Sequence record: OR167180
DNA from: Escherichia phage MIZ4
Direction: 5' to 3' (one strand)
DNA length: 64,000 bases
Positions 25,661-54,726 of the stretch are shown here, in pieces. Position 1 is the stretch's first letter, and every line of letters begins with the position of its first letter. Below the pieces are notes generated by a model that did not search any database, was not told the DNA's origin, and worked only from the letters and a program-made list of their open reading frames with translations. The translations under genes were made by a program, and so were the position numbers.

Positions 25661-26296
25661 TCAAGCGAATGTAGAAAGCAAATGTTTTGTTTCTTTCAGT
25701 TGTCGTTCAAGATCTTTGCGTTTCTCTTTAAGTTGCATTTTAGCATTATTTCGCTGTTTTTCAACATCTTTATCAATGCTCTTATTCCAGTTATCAATAT
25801 CAGAATAAGTTGGCATACCCAATTCTAGACCTAATGCGGTTGGATACAGGGTAACAGTCCATAAACCGCTAATCTTCTTAAATAGGTCTGGGTGTAGTGT
25901 ACTATCTACATCTTCCGGTGTCAACTCTTTTTCTTCTTTCGGTGGTGGGATCTCGTCATATGGTTCCAGTGCATTTACTTTAATATCAGATACCTCATCA
26001 AAGAATCCGCGTACATCCGCAGGAAATACACAAGCAATTTCCCAACCGTGATCACGCAGAGAAGTAATATTTTTCACTCCCCCACCATGTGTGATGATTG
26101 ATGTGACATTGCCATCGAGGTCCACCGAATTTACGAGAAATGGCTTATCGTCTGTCAGATCATTATAAAACTGTGCTTCGGCTGTAGTCATCTCCAGAAA
26201 CAGATCTCGGATCGGACGACCATCAGGTGCGTTACCTTCCTTGAGAGTATAAAAGCGACTTACGATCCATTTTGGCGGTAAAGCATTAGCGATCAT
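25661..26296 (-). CDS. Hypothetical protein (211 aa)
   Basis: ORF in the 41-61 interval. Confidence 0.5.
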   Translation of the reverse strand: MIANALPPKWIVSRFYTLKEGNAPDGRPIRDLFLEMTTAEAQFYNDLTDDKPFLVNSVDLDGNVTSIITHGGGVKNITSLRDHGWEIACVFPADVRGFFDEVSDIKVNALEPYDEIPPPKEEKELTPEDVDSTLHPDLFKKISGLWTVTLYPTALGLELGMPTYSDIDNWNKSIDKDVEKQRNNAKMQLKEKRKDLERQLKETKHLLSTFA

Positions 26297-42897: not shown

Positions 42898-44367
42898 CTA
42901 TTCCCCATTACCATTATACTTTCTTTGCTTAGTTATCCACACTCTAACCATCTCTACTGATTCACCGTCAGAGGGATCAAGAGTTTTTCCTTTTTTCTTC
43001 ATGCGGTACTTAAATCCGTTAAATCTTGCATTCTCTTGCTCGTTAAAGTCGAACATCTTTTTAAATGATTTTCTCCCTTTACGCTCACCGCATTCTAGCG
43101 GAATCATTCGGTCTGTTATTACATTGGCATTAGGTAGAAACGTTTTTAGATAATCTACCAACGCCCAATCAGGAACATATAGATTAACATTCTCCTTGCT
43201 CTCGTTGTCTCTCAGGTTACAACGCAAACATAATTGAAATGCTGGTTCCAGATAATCAGACACATGACGCGCTTTCAAAAACTCATTTGTCGGGAGATCA
43301 CAACTATTAGCAAGACCTTTTAAAATATCAATCTCCCATCGTTGAGGGTTAAAGCTGAACATCACAGCAACATTTTTATGATGAATGTAAGAGTTAAGAC
43401 CATAAGATCCGTAAGGTATCCGCTCACCAATACCATTTGTACACGCTTCACGGTCCCGATTCACGGTATAAATGAAGTCATCACCACATTCATTTTTAAC
43501 CATATCAACCAGACGTTCAAAGGTATTGTTTGTTTCTGACTGGTGACGCGACCATCGTTCGGAGTCCGTCATAAGGATGATGTTAACTCTATCTGTATTT
43601 TTATACTCTTTGAAATATAGTCTGGATTCTAGCGCACTCGGAACAAAATCGCAATTTGCATAGTATCGTAGATACTTCCCACTATATGTATCAAAGAGAT
43701 TTGCACATGCTATCGTAACCTTTTTAAAGTCTCCCCACGTACCGTGTTTGTTATCGTTCAAGAAAACAATTTTCGACCCATTCTTCCGGTGGCCTTCGTT
43801 ATGTTTTACCATAACGTTGATTTTCTTCTCTAATAACGCCTCATAAAGCCCTCTAAGAGAAGAATCGATCATATCAGTACCATCCTTTGCACTTTCTATC
43901 TTTTCTTTGATAGCGGCCTTCTCAGAGTCTTTTAGAACTAAGTTCTGTAGGCATTCCGATTCGTCGGCGATTGGTTCGCAATGCTTCGTGATAAGTTCAA
44001 GATTAGACTTAAACGGATACTCATTAAATTCAACCAGTTGAGGAACTTCATCAATGTAAAGAGCATAATCACCAAACATTTTTGAACGTTCCATATTAGA
44101 TAACGCTGTATGTGTAATGAATATCACATCAGCACCATCTTTAACTGATTGCATTATCGACGCTTGCACTGTCTTAAGGCTTCTTAGTCTTGTGCTATCA
44201 ATCAAGACAGCACGACCGCCCATTCTTTTAAACTTATTGTAAGATTGTTCACTTAAAACACGAGATGGCGAAGCAATAACCGCTTTTTCTTTTGTCTCTA
44301 GGACGTGGGAAAGTATAGCATCAGTTTTCCCCGCCGCTGGCAATGCGATTAATGTTTCAATCTTCAT
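42898..44367 (-). CDS. P-loop NTPase / helicase-like protein of unknown function (489 aa)
   Basis: Walker A-like ALPAAGKT at residues 8-15, Walker B-like LYIDEV ~100 aa downstream; Cys/His-rich basic C-terminal half; no confident family assignment. Confidence 0.55.
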   Translation of the reverse strand: MKIETLIALPAAGKTDAILSHVLETKEKAVIASPSRVLSEQSYNKFKRMGGRAVLIDSTRLRSLKTVQASIMQSVKDGADVIFITHTALSNMERSKMFGDYALYIDEVPQLVEFNEYPFKSNLELITKHCEPIADESECLQNLVLKDSEKAAIKEKIESAKDGTDMIDSSLRGLYEALLEKKINVMVKHNEGHRKNGSKIVFLNDNKHGTWGDFKKVTIACANLFDTYSGKYLRYYANCDFVPSALESRLYFKEYKNTDRVNIILMTDSERWSRHQSETNNTFERLVDMVKNECGDDFIYTVNRDREACTNGIGERIPYGSYGLNSYIHHKNVAVMFSFNPQRWEIDILKGLANSCDLPTNEFLKARHVSDYLEPAFQLCLRCNLRDNESKENVNLYVPDWALVDYLKTFLPNANVITDRMIPLECGERKGRKSFKKMFDFNEQENARFNGFKYRMKKKGKTLDPSDGESVEMVRVWITKQRKYNGNGE

Positions 44368-44672
44368 TAGAAACCCTTACGTCGTGCTTTCTGGCATTTC
44401 TTGATCATTTTATCAGAAATTTCGCGCTTAGGTGCAATCTCTTTCACACCGAAAGCACTAATGCCAAATTCAGAGAGAATATATTCAACTAACAATTCAC
44501 GCACACGCGCTTTACCGATATTCACGCCGTTATTTTTCAGATATGTCTGGCCTTCGACTTGCATCAGATCTAAATCAGCGTCGGTAATATTGATTTCTTC
44601 CATGCGCCCAAATCGAGAATAAACCATGTGTGCGATTGCATTGTGTACTAACATAATATATTCCTCACTCAA
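44367..44672 (-). CDS. Hypothetical protein (101 aa)
   Basis: ORF whose stop abuts the NTPase start. Confidence 0.45.
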   Translation of the reverse strand: MSEEYIMLVHNAIAHMVYSRFGRMEEINITDADLDLMQVEGQTYLKNNGVNIGKARVRELLVEYILSEFGISAFGVKEIAPKREISDKMIKKCQKARRKGF

Positions 44673-44675
44673 GAA

Positions 44676-44834
44676 TTACTTAATGATACTTACTTTACCA
44701 GATCCATGACAATGAGCGCAACACCCATCACCACGCAATCCTGTTCCGTTACAGTGTTTACACTTCTTCAACGGTAAAGCCATTATAGCAAATAAAGCAA
44801 TAATGAACACCGAAACTAAATTCTCAATAATCAT
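44676..44834 (-). CDS. Small membrane peptide with tandem CxxCxGxG (DnaJ-type) zinc-finger motifs (52 aa)
   Basis: Hand-translated MIIENLVSVFIIALFAIMALPLKKCKHCNGTGLRGDGCCAHCHGSGKVSIIK; not in ORF track (<60 aa). Confidence 0.4.
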   Translation of the reverse strand: MIIENLVSVFIIALFAIMALPLKKCKHCNGTGLRGDGCCAHCHGSGKVSIIK

Positions 44835-45093
44835 AAATCTCCCTCAGTTCTTTATAGCCTCCAATGTGCTCGTTGTCAATGAATATCTGGGGGTATACAA
44901 ATCGGAGGCTCTTTGAGTTCAGCCTCCCCGCCAGTTCTTCAATCATATCACGGTCGGGAATAATGTCAACCCCAACCTGCTTGAATACTGGTTTAAGTGT
45001 ATACGGAATACCCAGATCATCCAGTAGCTTCATTGCACTAATACAACCATAACAATGATAAGCCTCTTTCGGTATGCCGTATATCTCGATCAT
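44824..45093 (-). CDS. Glutaredoxin/NrdH-like redoxin
   Basis: 89 aa; CYGC active-site motif near the N-terminus; thioredoxin-fold pattern. Confidence 0.6.
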   Translation of the reverse strand: MIEIYGIPKEAYHCYGCISAMKLLDDLGIPYTLKPVFKQVGVDIIPDRDMIEELAGRLNSKSLRFVYPQIFIDNEHIGGYKELREIYDY

Positions 45094-45611
45094 TTCTCAG
45101 CCTTTAATCTTTCTAGTTCTTCTTCCAGTTCCTTGATCCGTTGGTCACGTTCAAAGTCACGCTGCAACTTAGTGGCGAATACTCGTTTAAACTGATTGTA
45201 ATCATCGATTTTAAACACTTCTTCTTCGCCATAGCGACGCACAGAAACTTCGTAGTTGTTGAAAAATTGTTCCAACATTGCATCAGTAGTCAGTTCTGAC
45301 GACACCACTTTAAAATAACGTTCTTCGGATTGCAAAAACCAGTTGTGCGCGTATTCCCGTACATCATCAACATCTCGACAGGTGTATGTTTTTCCATCAA
45401 TTTCAATCGCAGAAACATATTCGATATCTGATGCAATTTTTTCAAAAGCGATAACTTTAAATGTACGGTCACCGATAAAGTCTGCTATTGCATCATTTGC
45501 AACACTGGTTGCAAAGGCTTTCCGCGCTCGCTCGTTTTTCCACTGATAGGTCATACCAACAACAAACATATTACCATCAACAAACATATTACCATCCTCG
45601 CTCTTTACCAA
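45090..45611 (-). CDS. Paralog family A member (173 aa; true start possibly internal)
   Basis: N-terminal G(K/M)TY.WK motif; DGNMFV repeat from an 18-bp tandem duplication; C-terminal coiled coil. Confidence 0.45.
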   Translation of the reverse strand: MVKSEDGNMFVDGNMFVVGMTYQWKNERARKAFATSVANDAIADFIGDRTFKVIAFEKIASDIEYVSAIEIDGKTYTCRDVDDVREYAHNWFLQSEERYFKVVSSELTTDAMLEQFFNNYEVSVRRYGEEEVFKIDDYNQFKRVFATKLQRDFERDQRIKELEEELERLKAEK

Positions 45612-46413
45612 TCAAAAATTCAACTTCACGACGTTTAATGTCTTCTTGAAGGTCTTTAATCTTCTGGCGATCTTGCATTATTTCGTCCATCTTGTCAAGT
45701 GCTGCGATGAAATCATCGAAACGTTCAAAGGTTTTACCTTCATTTGCTTCGCCAAATTTAACCATTGTCAGGCCGTAACGACTACTAAACAGACGTTTCA
45801 ACTGTCCAACGATTTTAGAATCAGTGGTTATAACTTCCAATTCTTCTACTTCACGAAAGAATTTTCTATCAGAATCAATAAACCAGCTAGTTCCTTTATG
45901 GTTGCTATCTTCGGTTGCACTCATTAGAGTATGGTCTTTACCATCAATTTCAATTACATCAATTTGCCCACATGGACGAACATTTTTAACAGTAAAAGGT
46001 CTATAATTTATTGCTCGTGCAATAACATAATTAAGATTAGATACGTTTTCAGCATAATGGCAGAAGTCGGTCATAGCATTCACGTCTTTCCAAGTATAAG
46101 TTTTACCAACTTCCCATTTCTGGGGAACTTCTTCAACTTCACGAAAGAATTTTCTATCGAATGGACTAAAGAAATATGTTGCAGTCCAAATGTCTTTTCC
46201 TGTAGCAGTTTTCGCCGTATGATAAACACCGTCTAGCTCTATTGCATTAATCCAACCGTTGCCATCGATCTCGATGATGGTAAATGGCTTGTCACCAATA
46301 GCTGCACTAATATCGCTGTTAAGTGGAGAAAGAACACCTTCTCCGTTAGTAATAAACTCAGTTTTAGCGTTTACATCTTTCCAAGTGTAAGTTTTACCAA
46401 TTTCCCATTTCAT
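45589..46413 (-). CDS. Paralog family A member with internal domain duplication (274 aa)
   Basis: Two copies of KWE.GKTYTWKDVNA..DRKFFREVEE module. Confidence 0.5.
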   Translation of the reverse strand: MKWEIGKTYTWKDVNAKTEFITNGEGVLSPLNSDISAAIGDKPFTIIEIDGNGWINAIELDGVYHTAKTATGKDIWTATYFFSPFDRKFFREVEEVPQKWEVGKTYTWKDVNAMTDFCHYAENVSNLNYVIARAINYRPFTVKNVRPCGQIDVIEIDGKDHTLMSATEDSNHKGTSWFIDSDRKFFREVEELEVITTDSKIVGQLKRLFSSRYGLTMVKFGEANEGKTFERFDDFIAALDKMDEIMQDRQKIKDLQEDIKRREVEFLIGKERGW

Positions 46414-46425
46414 AATATATTCCCC

Positions 46426-46905
46426 TTAACCGATTTTATCAAGTTCGTTTAATGCTTTCTCAGCTTCCTGTATAGCTTGCACCCTTTCCGGCATTTTGTC
46501 AAGAAAATCTTTCAACTCTTCAAAACTGGAGATATGACGCAAGGCATTAGCACCGATAGCCGCATGTGATTTGCATTCAAAGCGAATTTTATAATTATCC
46601 ATAGCCAATTTGAGAAGATCAATTAATTTAGATTCTTCTGGAATAATAATTTCTTCAAATCTGCTACGGTCATGATCCAGAAACCAACAAGATAGACCTA
46701 CATCGGTTGAACTCATATAAGTTCCATCATGAAGATAAACAGACCGCACGTATCCTTTTTTCGCATCAACCGACGCAACTTTAAACGGTAATCGCAGATA
46801 TTTCAAATAATCAACATCATACCATTTAAAAAATTGATTTGCATCTTTTACATCTTTCCACGCATAGGTCTTACCAGCTTCCCATTTCATAATATCATCT
46901 CTCAT
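46426..46905 (-). CDS. Paralog family A member (159 aa)
   Basis: MKWEAGKTYAWKDV.. N-terminus shared with neighbours. Confidence 0.5.
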   Translation of the reverse strand: MRDDIMKWEAGKTYAWKDVKDANQFFKWYDVDYLKYLRLPFKVASVDAKKGYVRSVYLHDGTYMSSTDVGLSCWFLDHDRSRFEEIIIPEESKLIDLLKLAMDNYKIRFECKSHAAIGANALRHISSFEELKDFLDKMPERVQAIQEAEKALNELDKIG

Positions 46906-47431
46906 TTTTGATACGTGATTCTAATTGGATCATACGGTCGCGCGTTTGTTTGTATTCTCGGATAGCACCGATCCGGCTAGGCATACCATCCAGTACGCTC
47001 TTAATACCTTCTAGGGTAGTAATTTTGGCAATGCTATTATGTAACCCCATCTTATCGATCAACTGAATGTCGTAGGCTTCCATAAGCAGACCCAGGCGTT
47101 CTAAAGTTAGGTCTTCTTCTTTTTCTTCCGAATCTGGAATCTTATGTTCAATAGTAACTTCGGTAAAGAAACGACGCTCACCCGACCAAAACCACACGCC
47201 GGAACAGCCAATAGGGGATTCTTTTAACGTCATAGAGTCGAAATTACTACCAATAATAGTAATTTCTCTAACATCACCATCATCGTCAAGGTCTTCTACC
47301 CTAAACGGGCGACCAGCCAACAAGTCAACAATACATCTGTTAATAGACGACGAAAATTTAGTCAGTTCGGCTTTCGACGCTTCGCATTCAATCTTGTAAG
47401 TTTTACCAACTTCCCATTCCATAATAATCAC
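46895..47431 (-). CDS. Paralog family A member (178 aa)
   Basis: MEWEVGKTYK.. and ERRFFTEV motifs shared with neighbours. Confidence 0.5.
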   Translation of the reverse strand: MIIMEWEVGKTYKIECEASKAELTKFSSSINRCIVDLLAGRPFRVEDLDDDGDVREITIIGSNFDSMTLKESPIGCSGVWFWSGERRFFTEVTIEHKIPDSEEKEEDLTLERLGLLMEAYDIQLIDKMGLHNSIAKITTLEGIKSVLDGMPSRIGAIREYKQTRDRMIQLESRIKNER

Positions 47432-47432
47432 C

Positions 47433-47942
47433 TCAAATAATTTTCACTGGAATACTATTAACAATCTTGTATTGTACTTGATTGTCAGACCCCCGCCACG
47501 GCTTCTTCGTTGGCATATCTTTAATATAACGCCCATCGATGAACATGTCAACTGATTCTACAATTTTTCTTTGCTCATCATTCAATTGGTCAAGGGTATA
47601 ACCAGACCATAGCCAAATATCTTTATTTGGCATCCATGATTTTACTTCATCGATGATCCGCTGTACACCCTTTAAATTGCGTTTATACAGTGGATCGCCA
47701 CCTAAGAATGTTAGCCCCTGAATAAAATCAGGTCTAAGCAGATCCAGAATCAATCCCATTGTATCATCGGTGAATGGTTCCCCGTTCTTAGGATTGAGTA
47801 GGCTAGCATTAAAGCAACCATCACATGCGTGTGAACATCCGGTAACGTAAAGGGAGACTCTCACTCCCTCACCGTTCACCATATCACAATCTTTAATATC
47901 GGCATAGCGTAGTTTGCCGTATGTATCAGAACTCATATTCAA
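47433..47942 (-). CDS. nrdG: Anaerobic ribonucleotide reductase activating protein NrdG (radical SAM)
   Basis: CSHACDGC cluster plus GGDP motif; 169 aa; adjacent to the nrdD region. Confidence 0.85.
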   Translation of the reverse strand: MNMSSDTYGKLRYADIKDCDMVNGEGVRVSLYVTGCSHACDGCFNASLLNPKNGEPFTDDTMGLILDLLRPDFIQGLTFLGGDPLYKRNLKGVQRIIDEVKSWMPNKDIWLWSGYTLDQLNDEQRKIVESVDMFIDGRYIKDMPTKKPWRGSDNQVQYKIVNSIPVKII

Positions 47943-48078
47943 TTACCCCGAACTCGTTTACAATCTGCGCTTTATAGTAACCACCGCGAGATGCTAATAG
48001 ATAAGCTGGGCTTAGGTATTCGTATTCACGGATTTCTACTTGTGCGTTTTCAGTTTCCCAAATCAGTAAAGTCCACAT
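47926..48078 (-). CDS. Hypothetical small protein (50 aa; start at internal ATG with GGAGAAT SD)
   Basis: ORF 47926..48153 trimmed; promoter at 48121..48149. Confidence 0.35.
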   Translation of the reverse strand: MWTLLIWETENAQVEIREYEYLSPAYLLASRGGYYKAQIVNEFGVIEYEF

Positions 48079-48120
48079 ATTTGATTCTCCTGTAAAGTTG
48101 TATCTCGTCTTGATGAATAT

Positions 48121-48149
48121 AGTATAGGGGATCTCGTGATCCCCGTCAA
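48121..48149 (-). promoter_or_regulatory. Sigma70-like early promoter (TTGACG-17-TATACT) with GGGATC/GATCCC spacer palindrome
   Basis: Minus-strand motif. Confidence 0.45.
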
Positions 48150-48153
48150 GCAT

Positions 48154-48687
48154 TTATTTTAAATTTTTTCGAATGTATTCAGACCATTCCTTCCCTGTCA
48201 TTTCGGACCCATTCTGGAAACTGAAATATTCATACGGCATCGAGTCAAGATAAAACAGGATCATACATCGCGCCATATAATACCAATCACGATTAAAGTA
48301 AACTACGTTATCGCCAGTACCATCAACCCCTTTATCATAACCATCGCGGGTACGGGCGACCCATTGAATAGTATCAGTTTTCTCACGGATAGTAACAGGT
48401 TCCCAATATCCAGCACATCCAGCATGACCACACGAACAAGTAAGGAAATATTGACCTTTTGCTTTGTTGTCATCCCATTCACGATGAATTGGTTTGATTT
48501 CGTGAAACAGTGCCAAACAATCATGATTATGCAACACTGGCTTACCATCAATCAATGCATGGAATGTATACAAACGACCCGTAGACAAATAGCTATCCTC
48601 ACGCTCAACCAGTTCAATAGCAATCTTTTTAGCTCGTTCTTTGTGTCGTTGTGCTTTACGTTTACGGTTTAATGATTTCATAGTCAC
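48154..48687 (-). CDS. Hypothetical protein (177 aa)
   Basis: ORF between nrdD and nrdG. Confidence 0.5.
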   Translation of the reverse strand: MTMKSLNRKRKAQRHKERAKKIAIELVEREDSYLSTGRLYTFHALIDGKPVLHNHDCLALFHEIKPIHREWDDNKAKGQYFLTCSCGHAGCAGYWEPVTIREKTDTIQWVARTRDGYDKGVDGTGDNVVYFNRDWYYMARCMILFYLDSMPYEYFSFQNGSEMTGKEWSEYIRKNLK

Positions 48688-48698
48688 CTCACATTATT

Positions 48699-49238
48699 TC
48701 AAAGATCGCGATATTGTACATTATGAAAATGAGAACTTGCATTACCAATATTGTAGATAACAAATTCTTCATCCGGCGCTTGCGCTACAAATTGAGTATG
48801 AGCAACCGCTACGACTTTAAAAATACGATCCGTGATCTTGTGCTTAATTTCTGCCCCTACTTCCATAGGAACATATTCATTTGTTTCTGTTTCAGTCGCA
48901 AAACAGCCATCTTCTTCATAAGCACGAACAAATCGGTCGCAATCAGTACGCTTAACAAATTCAAGAGTATATAATTCTCGTGAATTGTCGGTATAGACCA
49001 ATACAGAATTATTATGATAGCGAATCACATACAGGTTATTATCATCGTCAATTACGCAAAAGCTACGGATTCCTTCGCCTTGACTCCAGCAGACATTAAC
49101 CACCGTTCCTCTAATAAAAAAACTTTCCTTTAAATTAAAACTAGTCAATGTGCTAGCGTGCATTTTAACAACAACACCATCACCAATTTCCAGTTTACGA
49201 AGTTTAACTTCTTTGCTCAGTACACAAAACATCATCAT
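48699..49238 (-). CDS. Hypothetical protein (179 aa)
   Basis: ORF between nrdD and nrdG. Confidence 0.5.
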   Translation of the reverse strand: MMMFCVLSKEVKLRKLEIGDGVVVKMHASTLTSFNLKESFFIRGTVVNVCWSQGEGIRSFCVIDDDNNLYVIRYHNNSVLVYTDNSRELYTLEFVKRTDCDRFVRAYEEDGCFATETETNEYVPMEVGAEIKHKITDRIFKVVAVAHTQFVAQAPDEEFVIYNIGNASSHFHNVQYRDL

Positions 49239-49267
49239 GTTGTCCTCTCGTTGTTTTCGATGTGAGC

Positions 49268-49295
49268 ATTATACATTAGCTAATCATATTGTCAA
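49268..49295 (-). promoter_or_regulatory. Sigma70-like early promoter (TTGACA-16-TATAAT)
   Basis: Minus-strand consensus hexamers immediately downstream of the nrdD terminator. Confidence 0.55.
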
Positions 49296-49300
49296 CACCC

Positions 49301-49332
49301 CAAAACGAAAAGCCGACCCTTTCGGATCGGCT
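49301..49332 (-). terminator. Terminator-like hairpin after nrdD
   Basis: agccgaccctttcggatcggct imperfect inverted repeat with flanking T-run on the minus strand; near-identical copy at ~61691. Confidence 0.45.
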
Positions 49333-49337
49333 AAAAA

Positions 49338-51200
49338 TTACATGTGCTTAACGCGGTTTACCATCTCGGAGTGTTTCCCGTGGTTGAATGGACGCAGATC
49401 AACAGATCCAAGATATCCACTAACGCGACGGATAACATTCATCTTTTCCAGATTGTCATTGCCGCAATCAGGACAAACAAAACCAGACTCGGTCGCTCTC
49501 ATTTCCTTAGTAGATCCGCATACATGACATACATCAGAAGGAGTATTAACACCGAAGTAGTGCAATTTATCCATTGCATAATCGACTACAGTTTCAAGAC
49601 CTTTCAGGTTGTTTTTCATGTCTGGGAACTCAACATAAGAGATCATGCCACCGGACGCCAGCCAGTGATAATCTTTCTCAAAGTCGATTTTCTCAAATGG
49701 AGTGACTTTCCGGTCTACGTCAAGGTGGAATGAGTTTGTGTACCAGTCTTTATCGGTAGCACCCTTAACAATACCAAACTGCTCTCTGTCCAGTCGATTA
49801 AATCGATAGCAAAGGCTCTCGGCTGGCGTACCGTAAAGACTAAACCCAAGTCCGGTTTCGTCCTTCCATTTTTCAGTATAATGACGCAAGATCTTAAGAA
49901 TATGTTTACCGTATCGCTGCGCATCTTCCGAATCAAACGGATGAACACCAAACAGGACGCTCAATACCTCATGTAAACCAATATATCCAAGAGAGATACT
50001 AGCGCGACCATCTTTCAACACTTCCAAAATTTCATCGTTTTGATGAATACGGAAAAATGCACCTTCTGTATACAGCACCGGAGCAACATTGGCTTTAGCC
50101 CCTTTTAAAGCGTCTACGCGACTCATGAGCGCATCAAAGCAAATATGCATACGATTAGCTAGCTCTTGTTCGAATAGCTCAATTCTGCGCATTACAGACG
50201 CTTTACCAGCACGACGAGCGGCAATAAGGGCAATACGCGGAAGATTCAGAGTCACAACACCTAAGTTATTACGTCCGTCTAATACTTCCTCGCCTTTCTC
50301 ATTATGCCACACACCCAGGAAGCTACGACAACCCATCGGGCTAACCGGAACACTAGATCCAGTGATGCTACGGTTATTCTTCGCAGAGATATAATCAGGG
50401 TAAAGACGCTTACTAGAACATTCCAATGCAAGTTGCTTAATGTCGTAGTTCGGATCTTCCGGTTTAAGGTTTAATCCTTCTTCTAAGAACATCACCAGCT
50501 TAGGAAACACCGGAGTGATACCATCTTTACCTAAACCTTTAGTTCGAACGTTCAGGATCGCTTTCTGAATCAGTTTTTCTTCCCAGCTAGTACCCATACC
50601 AAAGGTTAAAGTCACAAAAGGCGTTTGACCGTTGGTGGAGAACAAAGTGTTGATTTCATATTCCAACGCTTGATACCCGTCTAGCGTTTCTTTTTCTGTC
50701 TTCTCTTGTGCATAGAGAGTATCAGCTTTGATTCCGTAGGTCTCGGCATCAGCAAGGTGTTTATGATATGTTTTCTCAACGTATGGCGCTAAAACCTGAT
50801 CGATGTTTGCAATTGTGGTCCCGCCATATTGATGACTTGCCACCTGTGCGATAATTTGAGCGGTTACAGCACAAGCAACGCCGATTGATTTCGGACTTTC
50901 GATTTGTGCGCTACCCAATTTAAAACCATTCTCTAACATGTCTTTGAGATTAACAAGACAGCAGTTAGTAAACGGCATAGCGGGTGCATAATCCATATCA
51001 TGATAATGAATGTCACCGTCTACATGCGCTTTATAGATGTGCTCAGGTAACACGGTTTTAGCAATCTGTTTAGACACAGCACCAGCAATCAGATCTCGAC
51101 GTGTCGGGAATGTTCGCGCGTCTTTGTTCGCGTTCTCTTTGCTTACTTCGTTTTCTTTACCCGTTGCGATCTCTGTAATGTCTTTGATTAGTTTTTCCAT
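49338..51200 (-). CDS. nrdD: Anaerobic ribonucleoside-triphosphate reductase NrdD (uninterrupted)
   Basis: 620 aa; glycyl-radical motif RVSGYLG and C-terminal Zn ribbon CHVCGS..CPDCG; no intron. Confidence 0.9.
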   Translation of the reverse strand: MEKLIKDITEIATGKENEVSKENANKDARTFPTRRDLIAGAVSKQIAKTVLPEHIYKAHVDGDIHYHDMDYAPAMPFTNCCLVNLKDMLENGFKLGSAQIESPKSIGVACAVTAQIIAQVASHQYGGTTIANIDQVLAPYVEKTYHKHLADAETYGIKADTLYAQEKTEKETLDGYQALEYEINTLFSTNGQTPFVTLTFGMGTSWEEKLIQKAILNVRTKGLGKDGITPVFPKLVMFLEEGLNLKPEDPNYDIKQLALECSSKRLYPDYISAKNNRSITGSSVPVSPMGCRSFLGVWHNEKGEEVLDGRNNLGVVTLNLPRIALIAARRAGKASVMRRIELFEQELANRMHICFDALMSRVDALKGAKANVAPVLYTEGAFFRIHQNDEILEVLKDGRASISLGYIGLHEVLSVLFGVHPFDSEDAQRYGKHILKILRHYTEKWKDETGLGFSLYGTPAESLCYRFNRLDREQFGIVKGATDKDWYTNSFHLDVDRKVTPFEKIDFEKDYHWLASGGMISYVEFPDMKNNLKGLETVVDYAMDKLHYFGVNTPSDVCHVCGSTKEMRATESGFVCPDCGNDNLEKMNVIRRVSGYLGSVDLRPFNHGKHSEMVNRVKHM

Positions 51201-51244
51201 TGTATCACCTATGAAAAAGCGGGATTTCTCCCGCTCGTTGATAG

Positions 51245-51739
51245 TTATTTTACCAGTTCTGCTAATTCTTTTTCCGCCGCTTCCAGTTCAGCTTTAAGCT
51301 GTTTAATCTCTTGTCGCTTCTTATTAGCGGCTTCCTGCTTACTATTTCGGATAACCTGATCTAGATACAACTCCCAATCCTGAATATTTTTGATAATGTA
51401 TCCGTCAACATTAATTGGTCGGAGATTCAGTACAGCTTCCAGTTTAGTCGCAAAAACTTTAATTGCTGGTGTGAAGTATTCATATTCGTTATCTTCAAAC
51501 CAATAACCTAGACTTGCATTATCAATACGAAGACGAAGTTTAAGATCAAGGTCTTTATCGTCGGTGTAAAGATCTTTCACCTGCCCCATCGAGCTAACAA
51601 CAACTTTAAAACGAATTTTATCTACACCGCCAAAAACATCTTCAAGAATATCAGCAATTGAGCTATTAGCGCAAGATTGGTCGCTGAATGCGTCAAGGTT
51701 TTCTTTAGTTACAGTATACCAAACATCTTGTACCCACAT
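51245..51739 (-). CDS. Paralog family B member (164 aa)
   Basis: C-terminal coiled coil; conserved SD-spacer; promoter upstream. Confidence 0.45.
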   Translation of the reverse strand: MWVQDVWYTVTKENLDAFSDQSCANSSIADILEDVFGGVDKIRFKVVVSSMGQVKDLYTDDKDLDLKLRLRIDNASLGYWFEDNEYEYFTPAIKVFATKLEAVLNLRPINVDGYIIKNIQDWELYLDQVIRNSKQEAANKKRQEIKQLKAELEAAEKELAELVK

Positions 51740-51769
51740 AATATAATCCTCTCGTTGTTAAGTGGGAGT

Positions 51770-51798
51770 ATTATAGCATACTCCCTTCGCATGTCAAG
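51770..51798 (-). promoter_or_regulatory. Sigma70-like early promoter (TTGACA-17-TATAAT) with GGGAGTAT/ATACTCCC palindrome
   Basis: Minus-strand motif. Confidence 0.55.
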
Positions 51799-52972
51799 CA
51801 CTAACTTTTTTCTTTACTGCTTTCACCTTCTGGCGAATTGCTCGAATCTCTTCGATCTCTTTTTCAGTATCTTTAACAATTTCTTTGCGATTCTGAATAT
51901 CTTTATCGAGATTATCATCAAGTTTAGGCAGCATGTCAATCAAGAACTTTTTAAGGTCTTTCAGGTTGCGAATAACAGTACCTTCACCCATTACCGCCAC
52001 GCCTACACCATCCGGCAGATCACCAAACAGTTTAACCAGTTCAGACAGATGATCATGATCTTCTAGTGCTTCTTCCGGTTCAGATGGCAGTTCAACAAAG
52101 TAATAACGTTCATCATTGCTGATCAGGTGATACCAGCAAAGCCCAAAAGATTTAGGAGTATATTCTACACCACCAACTTCAACTGCGTCAACACTTCCAT
52201 AATCATCTACTTTAGTTACCTTAAATCCTTGTCCCAGCTTTTGAACAATTTCAACAACATGACTTGATACAGTTTCAGCGGTAAACCAATATGGCAAATT
52301 ATGCTGATTTGGCTTGTAGCGTTCACCTACTTTAAATCTCTGACCAGCCGCTTGCATAGAATGAAATTGTTGTTTCGTGATTTCCGCGAAGTATTCAAAT
52401 TCGCCACCATCAAACACACAAGCCCATTGATCACAAAAACGATCTGCCTTAACAGTTTCACCTTTCGCGGTGATCATGGTAGCTGATCCGTGCAATTCTT
52501 CTTCAACTAAAAAGCCATATTCGACAAAATCAACAAGTTTCATAGCTTCTTTGTGATCTGGATCATGCTCTCCCCAGAATCGCTTAAATTCTTGCAAACC
52601 TTCTGGGGTAAACGAATAACATTTACCTTTTTCAAAGTAAGTCGGCATTGCATCCTCTTTCTTGTTCATCGCTTCGTATGCCTCTTTTGAGATGCGTTTA
52701 AAGTATTTACGCTCATTGTGCATAATCATAGTAGCCCAATAATCAACAATATCATTAGCGGAATAAACTACATCTCCAGCTTCAATAGTAATAACATGAC
52801 CGTGGTCATCTTTTTCTAATACTTTAAAGCCCTTTTCTACGATTTCAGCAACTCGAATATGACCACGGCGCGAAGCATCGGTCAGAATAATTGAATAGCG
52901 AGAAAAGTCTAGAAACTCATCTTTACCGCCTTCACGGAATGCATAGTAATGACCTTCAAAGAATTTAGCCAT
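51794..52972 (-). CDS. Paralog family B member, multi-repeat (392 aa)
   Basis: Repeated GFKVL..VD..G and NERKYFKRI(S/T)K modules shared with 53036..53596 and 53611..53883. Confidence 0.5.
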   Translation of the reverse strand: MAKFFEGHYYAFREGGKDEFLDFSRYSIILTDASRRGHIRVAEIVEKGFKVLEKDDHGHVITIEAGDVVYSANDIVDYWATMIMHNERKYFKRISKEAYEAMNKKEDAMPTYFEKGKCYSFTPEGLQEFKRFWGEHDPDHKEAMKLVDFVEYGFLVEEELHGSATMITAKGETVKADRFCDQWACVFDGGEFEYFAEITKQQFHSMQAAGQRFKVGERYKPNQHNLPYWFTAETVSSHVVEIVQKLGQGFKVTKVDDYGSVDAVEVGGVEYTPKSFGLCWYHLISNDERYYFVELPSEPEEALEDHDHLSELVKLFGDLPDGVGVAVMGEGTVIRNLKDLKKFLIDMLPKLDDNLDKDIQNRKEIVKDTEKEIEEIRAIRQKVKAVKKKVSA

Positions 52973-53003
52973 AATATAATCCTCTCGTTGTTTAGATGGG
53001 AGT

Positions 53004-53032
53004 ATCTTACTACTCCCGTTTCATCATGTCAA
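53004..53032 (-). promoter_or_regulatory. Sigma70-like early promoter (TTGACA-17-TAAGAT) with GGGAGTA/TACTCCC palindrome
   Basis: Minus-strand motif. Confidence 0.5.
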
Positions 53033-53035
53033 GCG

Positions 53036-53596
53036 TTAAAGTGACTTTTTAATCTCTTTCAGTTCTTCCACTTTCTCGGCGCTGAATTTAGCGTAGGTAT
53101 CATGTCGAATAATTTCACTTTCAAGAAAGGTTTCCAGTCGAGATCTATTTTCAATAAGGAACTCTTTCAGGTCTTCCGCGTTCTTGACAAAGATTTTATT
53201 GTCGGTAATGTCATCTTCAATCGCAAAGGAGATAGAGCGAACTTTACCAAACAAGTTAATCAGATCTTCCAGAGATTCTTCTTTCTTAACTGGTTTCATT
53301 TCTTCAAACTGCTTTTTAGTGATGCGTTTAAAGTATTTGCGCTCGTTTGCAGCAATCAGAACAGATGCACCTTCATACCCATGAGTTTCTACCAGATACA
53401 CACGCCCCATCGCATCAACAGTGAGAACTTTAAAGCCGTTACAAAGCACGTCATACAAGAACTTATTATGTTGCGGACATCGTTTGATAAATTCTGCGGC
53501 TGTTTCTGCACTACGGAAAGTGTAATAACGACCTCGTTCAAAAACAGCATCATTTGAAGACTTAGCCGGATACAATTTATACATTTTCTGTACCAT
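53036..53596 (-). CDS. Paralog family B member (start at MVQKMYKLY with GAGGATTATATT SD)
   Basis: NERKYFKRITKKQFEEM module; ORF 53036..53614 trimmed to the ATG with SD. Confidence 0.5.
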   Translation of the reverse strand: MVQKMYKLYPAKSSNDAVFERGRYYTFRSAETAAEFIKRCPQHNKFLYDVLCNGFKVLTVDAMGRVYLVETHGYEGASVLIAANERKYFKRITKKQFEEMKPVKKEESLEDLINLFGKVRSISFAIEDDITDNKIFVKNAEDLKEFLIENRSRLETFLESEIIRHDTYAKFSAEKVEELKEIKKSL

Positions 53597-53610
53597 AATA
53601 TAATCCTCTA

Positions 53611-53883
53611 TCATTTCACTAATTGAACAGCACGAAACAGAATGCGGTCACACGGAAGCAGCATAAATTCCCAACGCGGATCAAAGTCTTTAGCGGTGTA
53701 TGTTTTCCCATCAACAGAGATTTCACTTACATAACCAATAGGTGACACTTTAAGAACAGTAAATCCATTCTTGATTGCTTCGTAGGTATCTTTCAGACCT
53801 TCGTAGTCATCCTCTAGGAAGTCTTTACGTGCTTGCTCAGATTTAAAAACATAGGCCACACCAGCTTTAAACATCTTACGCAT
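53611..53883 (-). CDS. Paralog family B member (90 aa)
   Basis: GFTVLKV..GKTYTAKDF module. Confidence 0.45.
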   Translation of the reverse strand: MRKMFKAGVAYVFKSEQARKDFLEDDYEGLKDTYEAIKNGFTVLKVSPIGYVSEISVDGKTYTAKDFDPRWEFMLLPCDRILFRAVQLVK

Positions 53884-53914
53884 TGTTGATTCTCCTTCTT
53901 GATTAGATGGGAGT

Positions 53915-53943
53915 ATTTTACTACTCCCGTTTCATGTTGTCAA
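53915..53943 (-). promoter_or_regulatory. Sigma70-like early promoter (TTGACA-17-TAAAAT) with GGGAGTA/TACTCCC palindrome
   Basis: Minus-strand motif just downstream of gene 49. Confidence 0.5.
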
Positions 53944-53946
53944 CTC

Positions 53947-54420
53947 CTATCTTAATCTTTGTATGAATTGTTTCTTATACTTCTTCGTGATTTCTTCTCG
54001 TGTATCAGCGTCGCAGTATTCGAAACCTTCTGCGTCCATAATATCAACCATCTCCGCGCGTGTCAAGCGTGAAAATCGTTTTACTTTATCAACAGCATAT
54101 TGAGGATGTAAATGATTGTTGGTGTAGTCTCCTTTGATGTAATTAACATAGTTTGTAGCCCAAACAACGAAATCAGCACCTAAAGCACCAACACCAAACC
54201 GTTTAAAGTCTCCGGTCAACGATCCTTCTAGGCGGTTGCAACACGAATGAAGCAATCCCCTTACGCGGCCTTGCCCTTTCCCATCTAGATCATGATCATG
54301 GTCAAGATGGTTTTTGCTCATATCCTCAAAAAGTGGCAATTGACAAAGGGGGCAAATGCCCCCCTGTTTTTCGAATAGTTCTTGTTTGTACTCTTTAGCA
54401 CTCTTAGCAGTCAGTAACAT
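53947..54420 (-). CDS. 49: Endonuclease VII (Holliday junction resolvase) gp49
   Basis: Blocks matching T4 EndoVII (C.LCQ, NHLDHDH, VRGLL, IKGDYTNNHLHP, FSRL..EM, GFEY, KKQ); start set at MLLTAK with GGAGGG SD. Confidence 0.9.
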   Translation of the reverse strand: MLLTAKSAKEYKQELFEKQGGICPLCQLPLFEDMSKNHLDHDHDLDGKGQGRVRGLLHSCCNRLEGSLTGDFKRFGVGALGADFVVWATNYVNYIKGDYTNNHLHPQYAVDKVKRFSRLTRAEMVDIMDAEGFEYCDADTREEITKKYKKQFIQRLR

Positions 54421-54444
54421 AAATTCACCCTCCAAAGAAGGTAT

Positions 54445-54726
54445 TTAACCATTAATCTTGTTTTTGACTACAAAGGATCTGAACTCATCAAAACCACCTA
54501 TATAATCACCATTATAGAAAATCTGCGGCATGGTGGCAATAACTTCTACCCCTGCGCGATCCTGAATGTCGGCAATGATAGAATCAATCTTTACCGGACG
54601 ACCGTTTTCGTCCACACCATCATTAACCGGAATGTAGATGTAAGGGATCTTACGCGATTCACAAAGGCGCTTTGCATTCTGGCAATACTTACAGTTGTAA
54701 CCTTCAAAACCAAAAATTTCTACCAT
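54445..54726 (-). CDS. nrdC: Glutaredoxin/thioredoxin NrdC-like
   Basis: CKYCQNAKRL active site resembling T4 NrdC CVYCDNAKRL; ..MPQIF..IGGFD.. Confidence 0.8.
   Translation of the reverse strand: MVEIFGFEGYNCKYCQNAKRLCESRKIPYIYIPVNDGVDENGRPVKIDSIIADIQDRAGVEVIATMPQIFYNGDYIGGFDEFRSFVVKNKING

Follow-up and report, generated by a model that had tools for sequence, protein, structure and literature searches.

Between nrdG and nrdH in the genome of Escherichia phage MIZ4 (record OR167180, of which a 64,000-nucleotide stretch, the window, was analysed) lie four adjacent leftward genes that resemble each other, and the locus raises the question of which protein family they belong to, why this family has multiplied at the site and what its products do. 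The answer that we favour, at a probability of about one half for the reading as a whole, is that the genes form a tandem array of the GoF family of T4-like phages, which would be expressed early and whose products would act as dimeric adaptors that bind a partner. We are confident that the array genes, judged by family identity and architecture jointly, are early-region accessory genes of the GoF (ComC-alpha)/Frd.2/MotB.1 family, and we put the adaptor mechanism forward tentatively. The GoF N-domain family is already known, having been recognised in 2025 with three T4 members (PMC12152347); new here is that the N-terminal barrels of A1, A2, A3c and A4 (A1 to A4 being the genes in order of transcription, and A3n and A3c the two N-domains of A3) exist as two deeply diverged, independently assorting alleles.

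Positions 44800-47950 have 100% identity with Escherichia phage MIZ5 (OR167181.1, a Krischvirus of the Straboviridae), and 57 further RB49-like phages match this segment at 93-99% identity, with at least 80% of it covered in 56 of 58 records. The four leftward open reading frames (ORFs) called by the first-pass annotation, which was made from the letters alone, agree with the ORF list, the annotation of OR167181.1 and the positions of the Shine-Dalgarno sites, and the minus-strand order is nrdG, A1, A2, A3, A4, nrdH. A1 (46895..47422, minus strand; 175 amino acids (aa); RB49p051 homologue) is delimited by its ORF and by the start annotated in OR167181.1; its earlier end at 47431 marks an in-frame GTG further upstream and was given up in favour of the annotated start, whose ATG is preceded at 6 nucleotides (nt) by the Shine-Dalgarno sequence GGTGA. 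In the protein, aa 1-93 form a GoF-like N-domain, which an acidic linker connects to a tail with a helix, a hairpin and a long helix. A2 (46426..46890, minus strand; 154 aa; RB49p050 homologue) has an N-domain at aa 1-85 followed by a tail, and A4 (45090..45587, minus strand; 165 aa; RB49p048 homologue) an N-domain at aa 6-99 followed by a tail. A3 (45589..46413, minus strand; 274 aa; RB49p049 homologue) carries two N-domains, A3n (aa 1-97, 46123-46413, minus strand) and A3c (aa 98-193, 45835-46122, minus strand), which are recovered as two hidden Markov model (HMM) domains at 4e-35 and 2e-36, and after A3c a single tail (45589-45834, minus strand). The tandem N-domains of the earlier call on A3 are therefore real, and its duplication of the whole module is not, since there is only one tail; the array totals five barrels and four tails. 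All four genes, RB49p051 to RB49p048, are labelled "hypothetical" in the RB49 annotation.

The four proteins share an N-terminal motif (MEWEVGKTYK in A1, MKWEAGKTYAWKDV in A2, MKWEIGKTYTWKDV and the internal QKWEVGKTYTWKDV in A3, MFVVGMTYQWK in A4) and an internal motif (ERRFFTEV in A1, DRSRFEEI in A2, DRKFFREV twice in A3, EERYFKVV in A4), both of which had been pointed out before. This likeness goes beyond composition. Paralog identity is 23-37%, and 26-32% in pairwise BLASTP, whose E values run from 4e-7 to 4e-3, and A3n and A3c are about 50% identical (E 4e-22; database size 1e8 throughout). HMMs built with one paralog left out score the left-out N-domain at 36-88 bits, compared with a maximum of 8-14 bits over 1000 shuffles, so that the proposed refutation, shared motifs no better than composition, failed. 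All four proteins match phrog_5347, which carries no annotated function, over profile positions 1-165 at E values from 1e-53 to 1e-92 (A1 3e-66, A2 2e-59, A3 3e-92, A4 2e-53). The same leave-one-out test gave 7-19.5 bits for the tails and 8.5-12 bits for shuffles, so likeness between the four tails is not significant; their relatedness is suggested only by a shared pattern of predicted secondary structure. By these alignments the four genes are true, old tandem paralogs, and the earlier description of a paralog expansion between nrdG and the glutaredoxin gene (nrdH), with an internal domain duplication in one gene, holds.

The family to which they belong was identified by profile searches. An HMM made from Krischvirus N-domains only gives T4 GoF a score of 32-35 bits over residues 4-92 (2000 shuffles reach 11.5 at best), and the un-iterated model picks out GoF (E 2.6e-9) and Frd.2 (E 1.5e-3) among T4 ORFs. 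Among ORFs from a six-frame translation of T4 early regions (89 kb), the iterated model, which includes distant homologues and has GoF in its training set, finds GoF, Frd.2 (3.5e-12) and MotB.1 (1.4e-6), and nothing else; this set is exactly the family with an "LSm-like fold" defined by Kim et al. 2025 (PMC12152347). PHROG cross-matches from the array proteins likewise lead to families labelled "goF mRNA metabolism modulator". With GoF as well as with Frd.2 and MotB.1 the array proteins have in common a homologous N-terminal barrel of about 90 aa, with an F/W-E-x-G-K-x-Y start, a central P-F-x-V and a terminal W-F...(F/Y)F-x-E-V, the same predicted fold with FeoA and IdeR as structural neighbours, a linker, often acidic, that leads to a separate C-terminal part, and their occurrence as small genes in early regions of T4-like phages. 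They differ from GoF and Frd.2 in the tail, which is short and beta-alpha in the T4 proteins and consists of a helix, a hairpin and a long amphipathic helix in the array. They further differ from the family in T4, where it comprises three dispersed single-domain genes as opposed to nine genes with 12 domains in MIZ5, by standing in tandem arrays that flank nrdD-nrdG, by the two or three barrels that one polypeptide can carry and by their swapped barrel alleles; according to the taxonomy line of the record, Krischvirus lies outside the Tevenvirinae. The different tail, the multiplied barrels, the tandem arrays and the allele swapping are not mentioned in PMC12152347, the sole paper on the family that was found, whose text contains neither RB49 nor Krischvirus nor the word "paralog".

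The AlphaFold2 model of the A1 N-domain is a five-stranded, FeoA-like SH3 barrel with two inserted helices (predicted local distance difference test (pLDDT) 60-91), a predicted bent antiparallel beta-barrel whose nearest solved folds are SH3 domains of the FeoA type. The resemblance to FeoA and to the C-terminal SH3-like domain of IdeR/DtxR (CATH 2.30.30.90) is structural only: the array proteins do not match Pfam FeoA (PF04023) and lack an iron-transport or metal-regulator context. With Hfq and Sm/LSm proteins they share a small, bent five-stranded beta-sheet, and one family member, the mutant GoF(D25Y), affects mRNA stability; the Sm fold is not the closest structural neighbour of the N-domain, and no Pfam match to LSM/Hfq (Sm1/Sm2) was obtained, A1 and A4 having no Pfam hit at E <=0.1 and A2 and A3 only unrelated sub-threshold ones. 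Searches of Pfam, NCBIfam and PADLOC gave no meaningful match (only sub-threshold HTH_49 and CHS4 in A3, and CARF_PIN at E 0.0096), and neither A3 nor the N-domain profile had a credible sequence match in the PDB. In A1 the barrel is followed by residues 92-100 with pLDDT below 50, which the model suggests to be a flexible linker, and then by the C-terminal part. The tail model (pLDDT 85) has helix at 4-13, strands at 16-18 and 29-31 and an amphipathic helix of about 38 residues at 34-71, with hydrophobic residues at 7-8 of 12 a/d heptad positions and at 6-9 of 28 other positions. The C-terminal coiled coil of the first-pass annotation thus survives as a long predicted amphipathic helix that follows a helix and a beta-hairpin, and its heptad pattern is only weak. 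Across the family three types of tail were found, namely the helix-hairpin-helix of the array, an alpha/beta tail of about 60 aa and the short beta-alpha tail of T4 GoF and Frd.2. The array proteins are acidic (isoelectric point 4.8-6.1), the net charge of the N-domains being -4 to -7 except in A2.

The age of the expansion can be judged from the corresponding locus of other phages. In T4 the interval from nrdG to nrdH holds gene 55.8 (70 aa) only, and that from gene 49 to nrdD is empty. On contigs L025 and L026 (SRR8048117, SRR8048113; uncultured T4-like phage), whose NrdG is 71% identical to that of MIZ5, nrdG is followed by six GoF-like genes (162, 168, 164, 171, 159 and 151 aa) and then by nrdH, the largest array found. 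The 24.5-kb T4-like contig L027 holds the end of one GoF-like gene and then a 274-aa two-barrel gene, which lies directly upstream of nrdH, a gene 55.2 homologue and a DEAD-like gene. Because the array is conserved at its site in such distant phages, it must be old, with a copy number that varies between lineages, and the comparison places the expansion before the split from phages with NrdG only 71% identical. The earlier notion of a hyperplastic site is borne out across T4-like phages, in which the content between nrdG and nrdH ranges from gene 55.8 only (T4) to four genes (Krischvirus) and, in metagenomic contigs, six and at least two; copy-number variation, which had been expected in related phages, exists between lineages, and the number of genes hardly changes inside the genus.

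Within the genus, plasticity takes the form of N-domain alleles and of a second A3 domain that may be present or missing. Alleles were compared over 15 distinct nrdG-nrdH loci obtained by an exact-protein look-up of NrdG, a procedure that favours sites with different neighbouring proteins and hence enriches variation near nrdG, not its position within genes; a scan of IMG/VR with NrdG yielded 2 loci only. Over these 15 loci the mean pairwise nucleotide difference is 0.00-0.03 in nrdG and nrdH, 0.004-0.11 in the tails and 0.13-0.43 in the barrels of A1, A2, A3c and A4, A3n being conserved, unlike the other four barrels. Among near-identical Krischvirus genomes the tails and flanking genes are about 95-100% identical, and in a control over 8.5 kb of the 11 loci with identical NrdG the four barrels differ by 0.18-0.37, all other genes and segments by 0.005-0.095. 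Each of the four variable barrels falls into two classes, with 38-66% protein identity between classes, and the classes assort independently. If those of MIZ5 are called a at all four positions, RB49 differs by class b in A4, ELT3 by class b in A2 and JK32 by class b in A3c and A4, and UPWr_E1 has class b in A1, A2 and A3c together with class a in A4. The ratio of nonsynonymous to synonymous divergence (dN/dS) is 0.04-0.6 within allele classes and 0.08-0.15 in the tails, and dS between classes is saturated (0.9-2.8). Breakpoints are found at two places, the domain boundary and the conserved 5' motif, which forms a repeat family of 69 nt with 65-78% identity. Because dS between classes is saturated, dN/dS within them is below 1 and the classes combine freely, the sequences identify them as ancient functional alleles moved by homologous recombination. 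Two other sources of the variation were rejected: gene conversion among the paralogs, as the nearest sequence to any allele is the other allele at its position (42-66%), other paralogs being 20-37% identical and A3n and A3c 51%, and accelerated amino-acid evolution of the N-domains, which is ruled out by the saturated dS between alleles and dN/dS <1 within.

The array also varies by deletion and duplication. A 30-nt sequence that encodes DRKFFREVEE at the end of the A3 N-domain (45841..45870) recurs as a direct repeat, 97% identical, at 46129..46158, and in E26 and contig L016, where A3 lacks the A3c barrel and is 175-178 aa long, the 288 nt lost equal the spacing of these repeats. An 18-bp tandem duplication (45554..45596, 2.4 copies) across the A3 stop and the A4 start gives A4 an extra N-terminal MFVDGN and two in-frame ATGs; it is present in P0072 and P0082, and the 158-aa A4 of RB49 is without it. 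The acidic linker of A1 shows indel variation, which is reminiscent of T4 goF, whose acidic region lost 21 bp in frame during experimental evolution (PMC9271167). Phage FL15 has its A2 orthologue (L028 1812-2292) split in the annotation into ORFs of 59 and 113 aa, either through a frameshift in a viable isolate or through a sequencing error. The metagenomic protein P0068 (154 aa; contig of 10.4 kb) is a chimera: its first ~48 residues, half an A1 barrel, run on into the last part of a barrel of A3c type and into the tail of A3, which implies a deletion between paralogs that removed A2 and A3n.

In the mechanism that we tentatively favour, the long C-terminal helix would dimerise the protein, and recognition and binding of a partner would fall to the barrel. 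The mostly acidic nature of the barrels makes a protein or a ribonucleoprotein a likelier partner than naked RNA, and by analogy with goF-rho genetics the partner may belong to the host machinery for transcription termination or mRNA decay. The paralogs and the two freely reassorting alleles of each barrel would supply different specificities, and the conserved tails, together with the 5' motif coding for MKWExGKTY, would serve as homologous DNA for allele exchange. That the barrel and not the tail is exchanged between co-circulating phages points to the barrel as the specificity determinant, a module that can occur in several copies per protein and joined to another, probably dimerising kind of tail.

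Genetic knowledge of GoF goes back to about 1980 and to the suppression of rho (nusD/tabC) restriction. The goF point mutants D25Y and G84R allow T4 to grow on certain rho mutants, and genes of the GoF/MotB.1 family are non-essential; GoF and MotB.1 were partly dimeric when run (PMC12152347). Several points weigh against the adaptor reading. In the same study wild-type GoF and MotB.1 had little effect, with no clear phenotype or reporter effect, and AlphaFold3 gave no support for homo-oligomers of either protein (PMC12152347). For the family members, partner and binding are only proposed; the coiled coil and dimer derive from a monomer model and a weak heptad pattern, and the early timing from a promoter-like sequence only. 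The choice of loci for the diversity analysis moreover inflates diversity somewhere near nrdG, though not its position within genes.

Direct binding of RNA is a possible but unlikely alternative: the proteins would be RNA chaperones or mRNA stabilisers in the manner of Hfq/LSm or of GoF(D25Y), with each paralog protecting different phage transcripts. The sole activity shown for the family, a post-transcriptional stabilisation of a gene 41 leader reporter RNA by GoF(D25Y) (PMC12152347), speaks for it, as do the residues at the two suppressor positions, the HMM column of G84 holding Arg or Lys in 4 of 5 modules and that of D25, which lies in a loop where the alignment is uncertain, Phe, Trp or Tyr in 3 of 5. 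These basic and aromatic residues make the array proteins resemble the gain-of-function alleles. The acidity of the proteins argues against general RNA binding.

We hold it doubtful, to a like degree, that the array is a counter-defence or host-range arsenal whose barrels bind, or act as decoys for, strain-variable immunity or restriction factors, with frequency-dependent selection keeping the alleles. The two ancient alleles per domain that assort independently among otherwise near-identical phages would be expected of such an arsenal, as would the copy numbers of 0, at least 2, 4 and 6 between lineages, the A2 split in viable FL15, the A3c deletion in E26 and L016 and the position of the genes in the early accessory region. 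The proteins have no likeness to known anti-defence proteins, however, PADLOC included, within the allele classes selection acts in a purifying way and nothing hints at positive selection, and only two classes per domain occur in the 15 loci, which could reflect recombination between two phage lineages.

A further, improbable extension combines two proposals that we assess as one. The arrays may diversify binding specificity, with the constant dimerising tails and the 5' motif as substrates for in-frame recombination, and the exchanged hypervariable SH3-like barrels may neutralise strain-variable host factors (immunity, Rho, RNA-decay components); in addition, the natural array proteins may already possess the RNA-stabilising activity that T4 GoF gains through D25Y or G84R. 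Finally, a lack of function, the ORFs being duplicates in decay or wrongly called genes, is largely refuted and highly improbable, for although some database copies are truncated or frameshifted (P0090-P0092; FL15), dN/dS is 0.04-0.6 in every segment, the genes are full-length in 56 of 58 genomes, each has a Shine-Dalgarno site, confident folds are predicted for both domains and the array is kept in distant phages.

For work on binding, reporters and host range, the array offers natural variants, some of which mimic the GoF suppressor substitutions. If their reading as RNA-stabilising proteins is true, they would provide a direct handle on the 45-year-old question of goF function. Should work on the variants lead nowhere, the locus stays an ordinary case of paralogs multiplied among the accessory early genes of a T4-like phage.

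As to expression, the array is flanked upstream by nrdG, for the anaerobic ribonucleotide reductase activase (47433..47936, minus strand; Pfam Fer4_12, 2e-43), and downstream by the nrdH-like glutaredoxin gene (44824..45093, minus strand; Pfam Glutaredoxin and RB49 annotation). The junctions are tight, with gaps of 1-12 nt or an ATGA overlap (-4 to +12 nt), as between the A4 stop and the nrdH start, and a Shine-Dalgarno sequence at every start. The sole terminator and promoter unit nearby is an element at 49268..49332 (minus strand), directly after the nrdD stop and preceding ORF 48699-49238, that resembles the promoter early stem-loops (PeSLs) recorded near nrdD in PMC2839356. It consists of a terminator stem-loop, AGCCGATCC-GAAA-GGGTCGGCT with a 9-bp GC-rich stem, a T-run and a perfect TTGACA-16-TATAAT promoter. 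No minus-strand terminator-like site was seen between this element and position 44000, and there is no promoter-terminator cassette between array genes. Promoter-like matches within the array (e.g. 46442-46414 and 47551-47523) are no commoner than expected from shuffled sequence (27, compared with 22.4 ± 4.7); Rfam gave no RNA family over 44000-54500. The array genes of this Straboviridae phage stand on the early-gene strand, 3' of a perfect sigma-70 promoter. Given the tight junctions, the lone promoter and terminator at 49.3 kb and the lack of a minus-strand terminator down to 44000, the promoter at 49268-49295 is a likely early promoter, and nrdG, the array and nrdH are probably co-transcribed as one early operon.

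Accessory early genes in a variable region of the same phage group have been described as PeSL-flanked ORFan cassettes of RB49 and phi1 (Arbiol et al. 2010, PMC2839356), with which the array shares the PeSL-like element upstream at 49.3 kb. It differs from them in that its genes have no individual PeSLs (gaps of -4 to +12 nt) and that exchange takes place inside coding sequence, at domain boundaries, replacing half a gene.

The family is not confined to this array. A scan of the whole MIZ5 genome found nine genes with 12 barrels, all inside the window, so that RB49-like phages invest about 6 kb in GoF-family genes. A second array (51245..53883, minus strand) comprises four GoF-like genes between gene 49 (endonuclease VII, 53947-54435) and nrdD: 53611-53883 (90 aa, N-domain only), 53036-53614 (192 aa), 51794-52972 (392 aa, three N-domains and a tail) and 51245-51739 (164 aa), all on the minus strand. 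Two of them belong to phrog_8944, labelled "goF mRNA metabolism modulator". A lone GoF-like gene at 25661..26296 (minus strand; 211 aa; phrog_16187) encodes one barrel and a long coiled-coil-like tail, and its 211-aa ECD7 counterpart in BFVD is named "Dc2". An exhaustive HMMER search of 1.84 billion representatives returned only 52 cluster representatives at E <=1e-3, the matches examined being short proteins with one to three N-domains each, and a word-indexed protein search returned Krischvirus relatives only. In BFVD, the best 50 of 65 significant structural matches (E <=0.001) are uncharacterised; those among these 50 that carry a name nearly all stem from T4-like phages, which span many genera and often contribute more than one protein each.

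Two neighbouring genes deserve mention. The DUF7170 ORF upstream of nrdG (47926-48153, minus strand) has an uncertain start: an upstream ATG gives it 75 aa in this sequence and in E26, and the annotation of MIZ5, RB49 and most relatives has 50 aa. The 489-aa RB49p044 homologue (42898-44367, minus strand), which has only a weak DEAD-helicase Pfam signal and adjoins the gene 55.2 homologue (DUF7570), keeps its place beside the latter even in the distant contig L027, and its diversity among Krischvirus loci is fairly high at 0.095.

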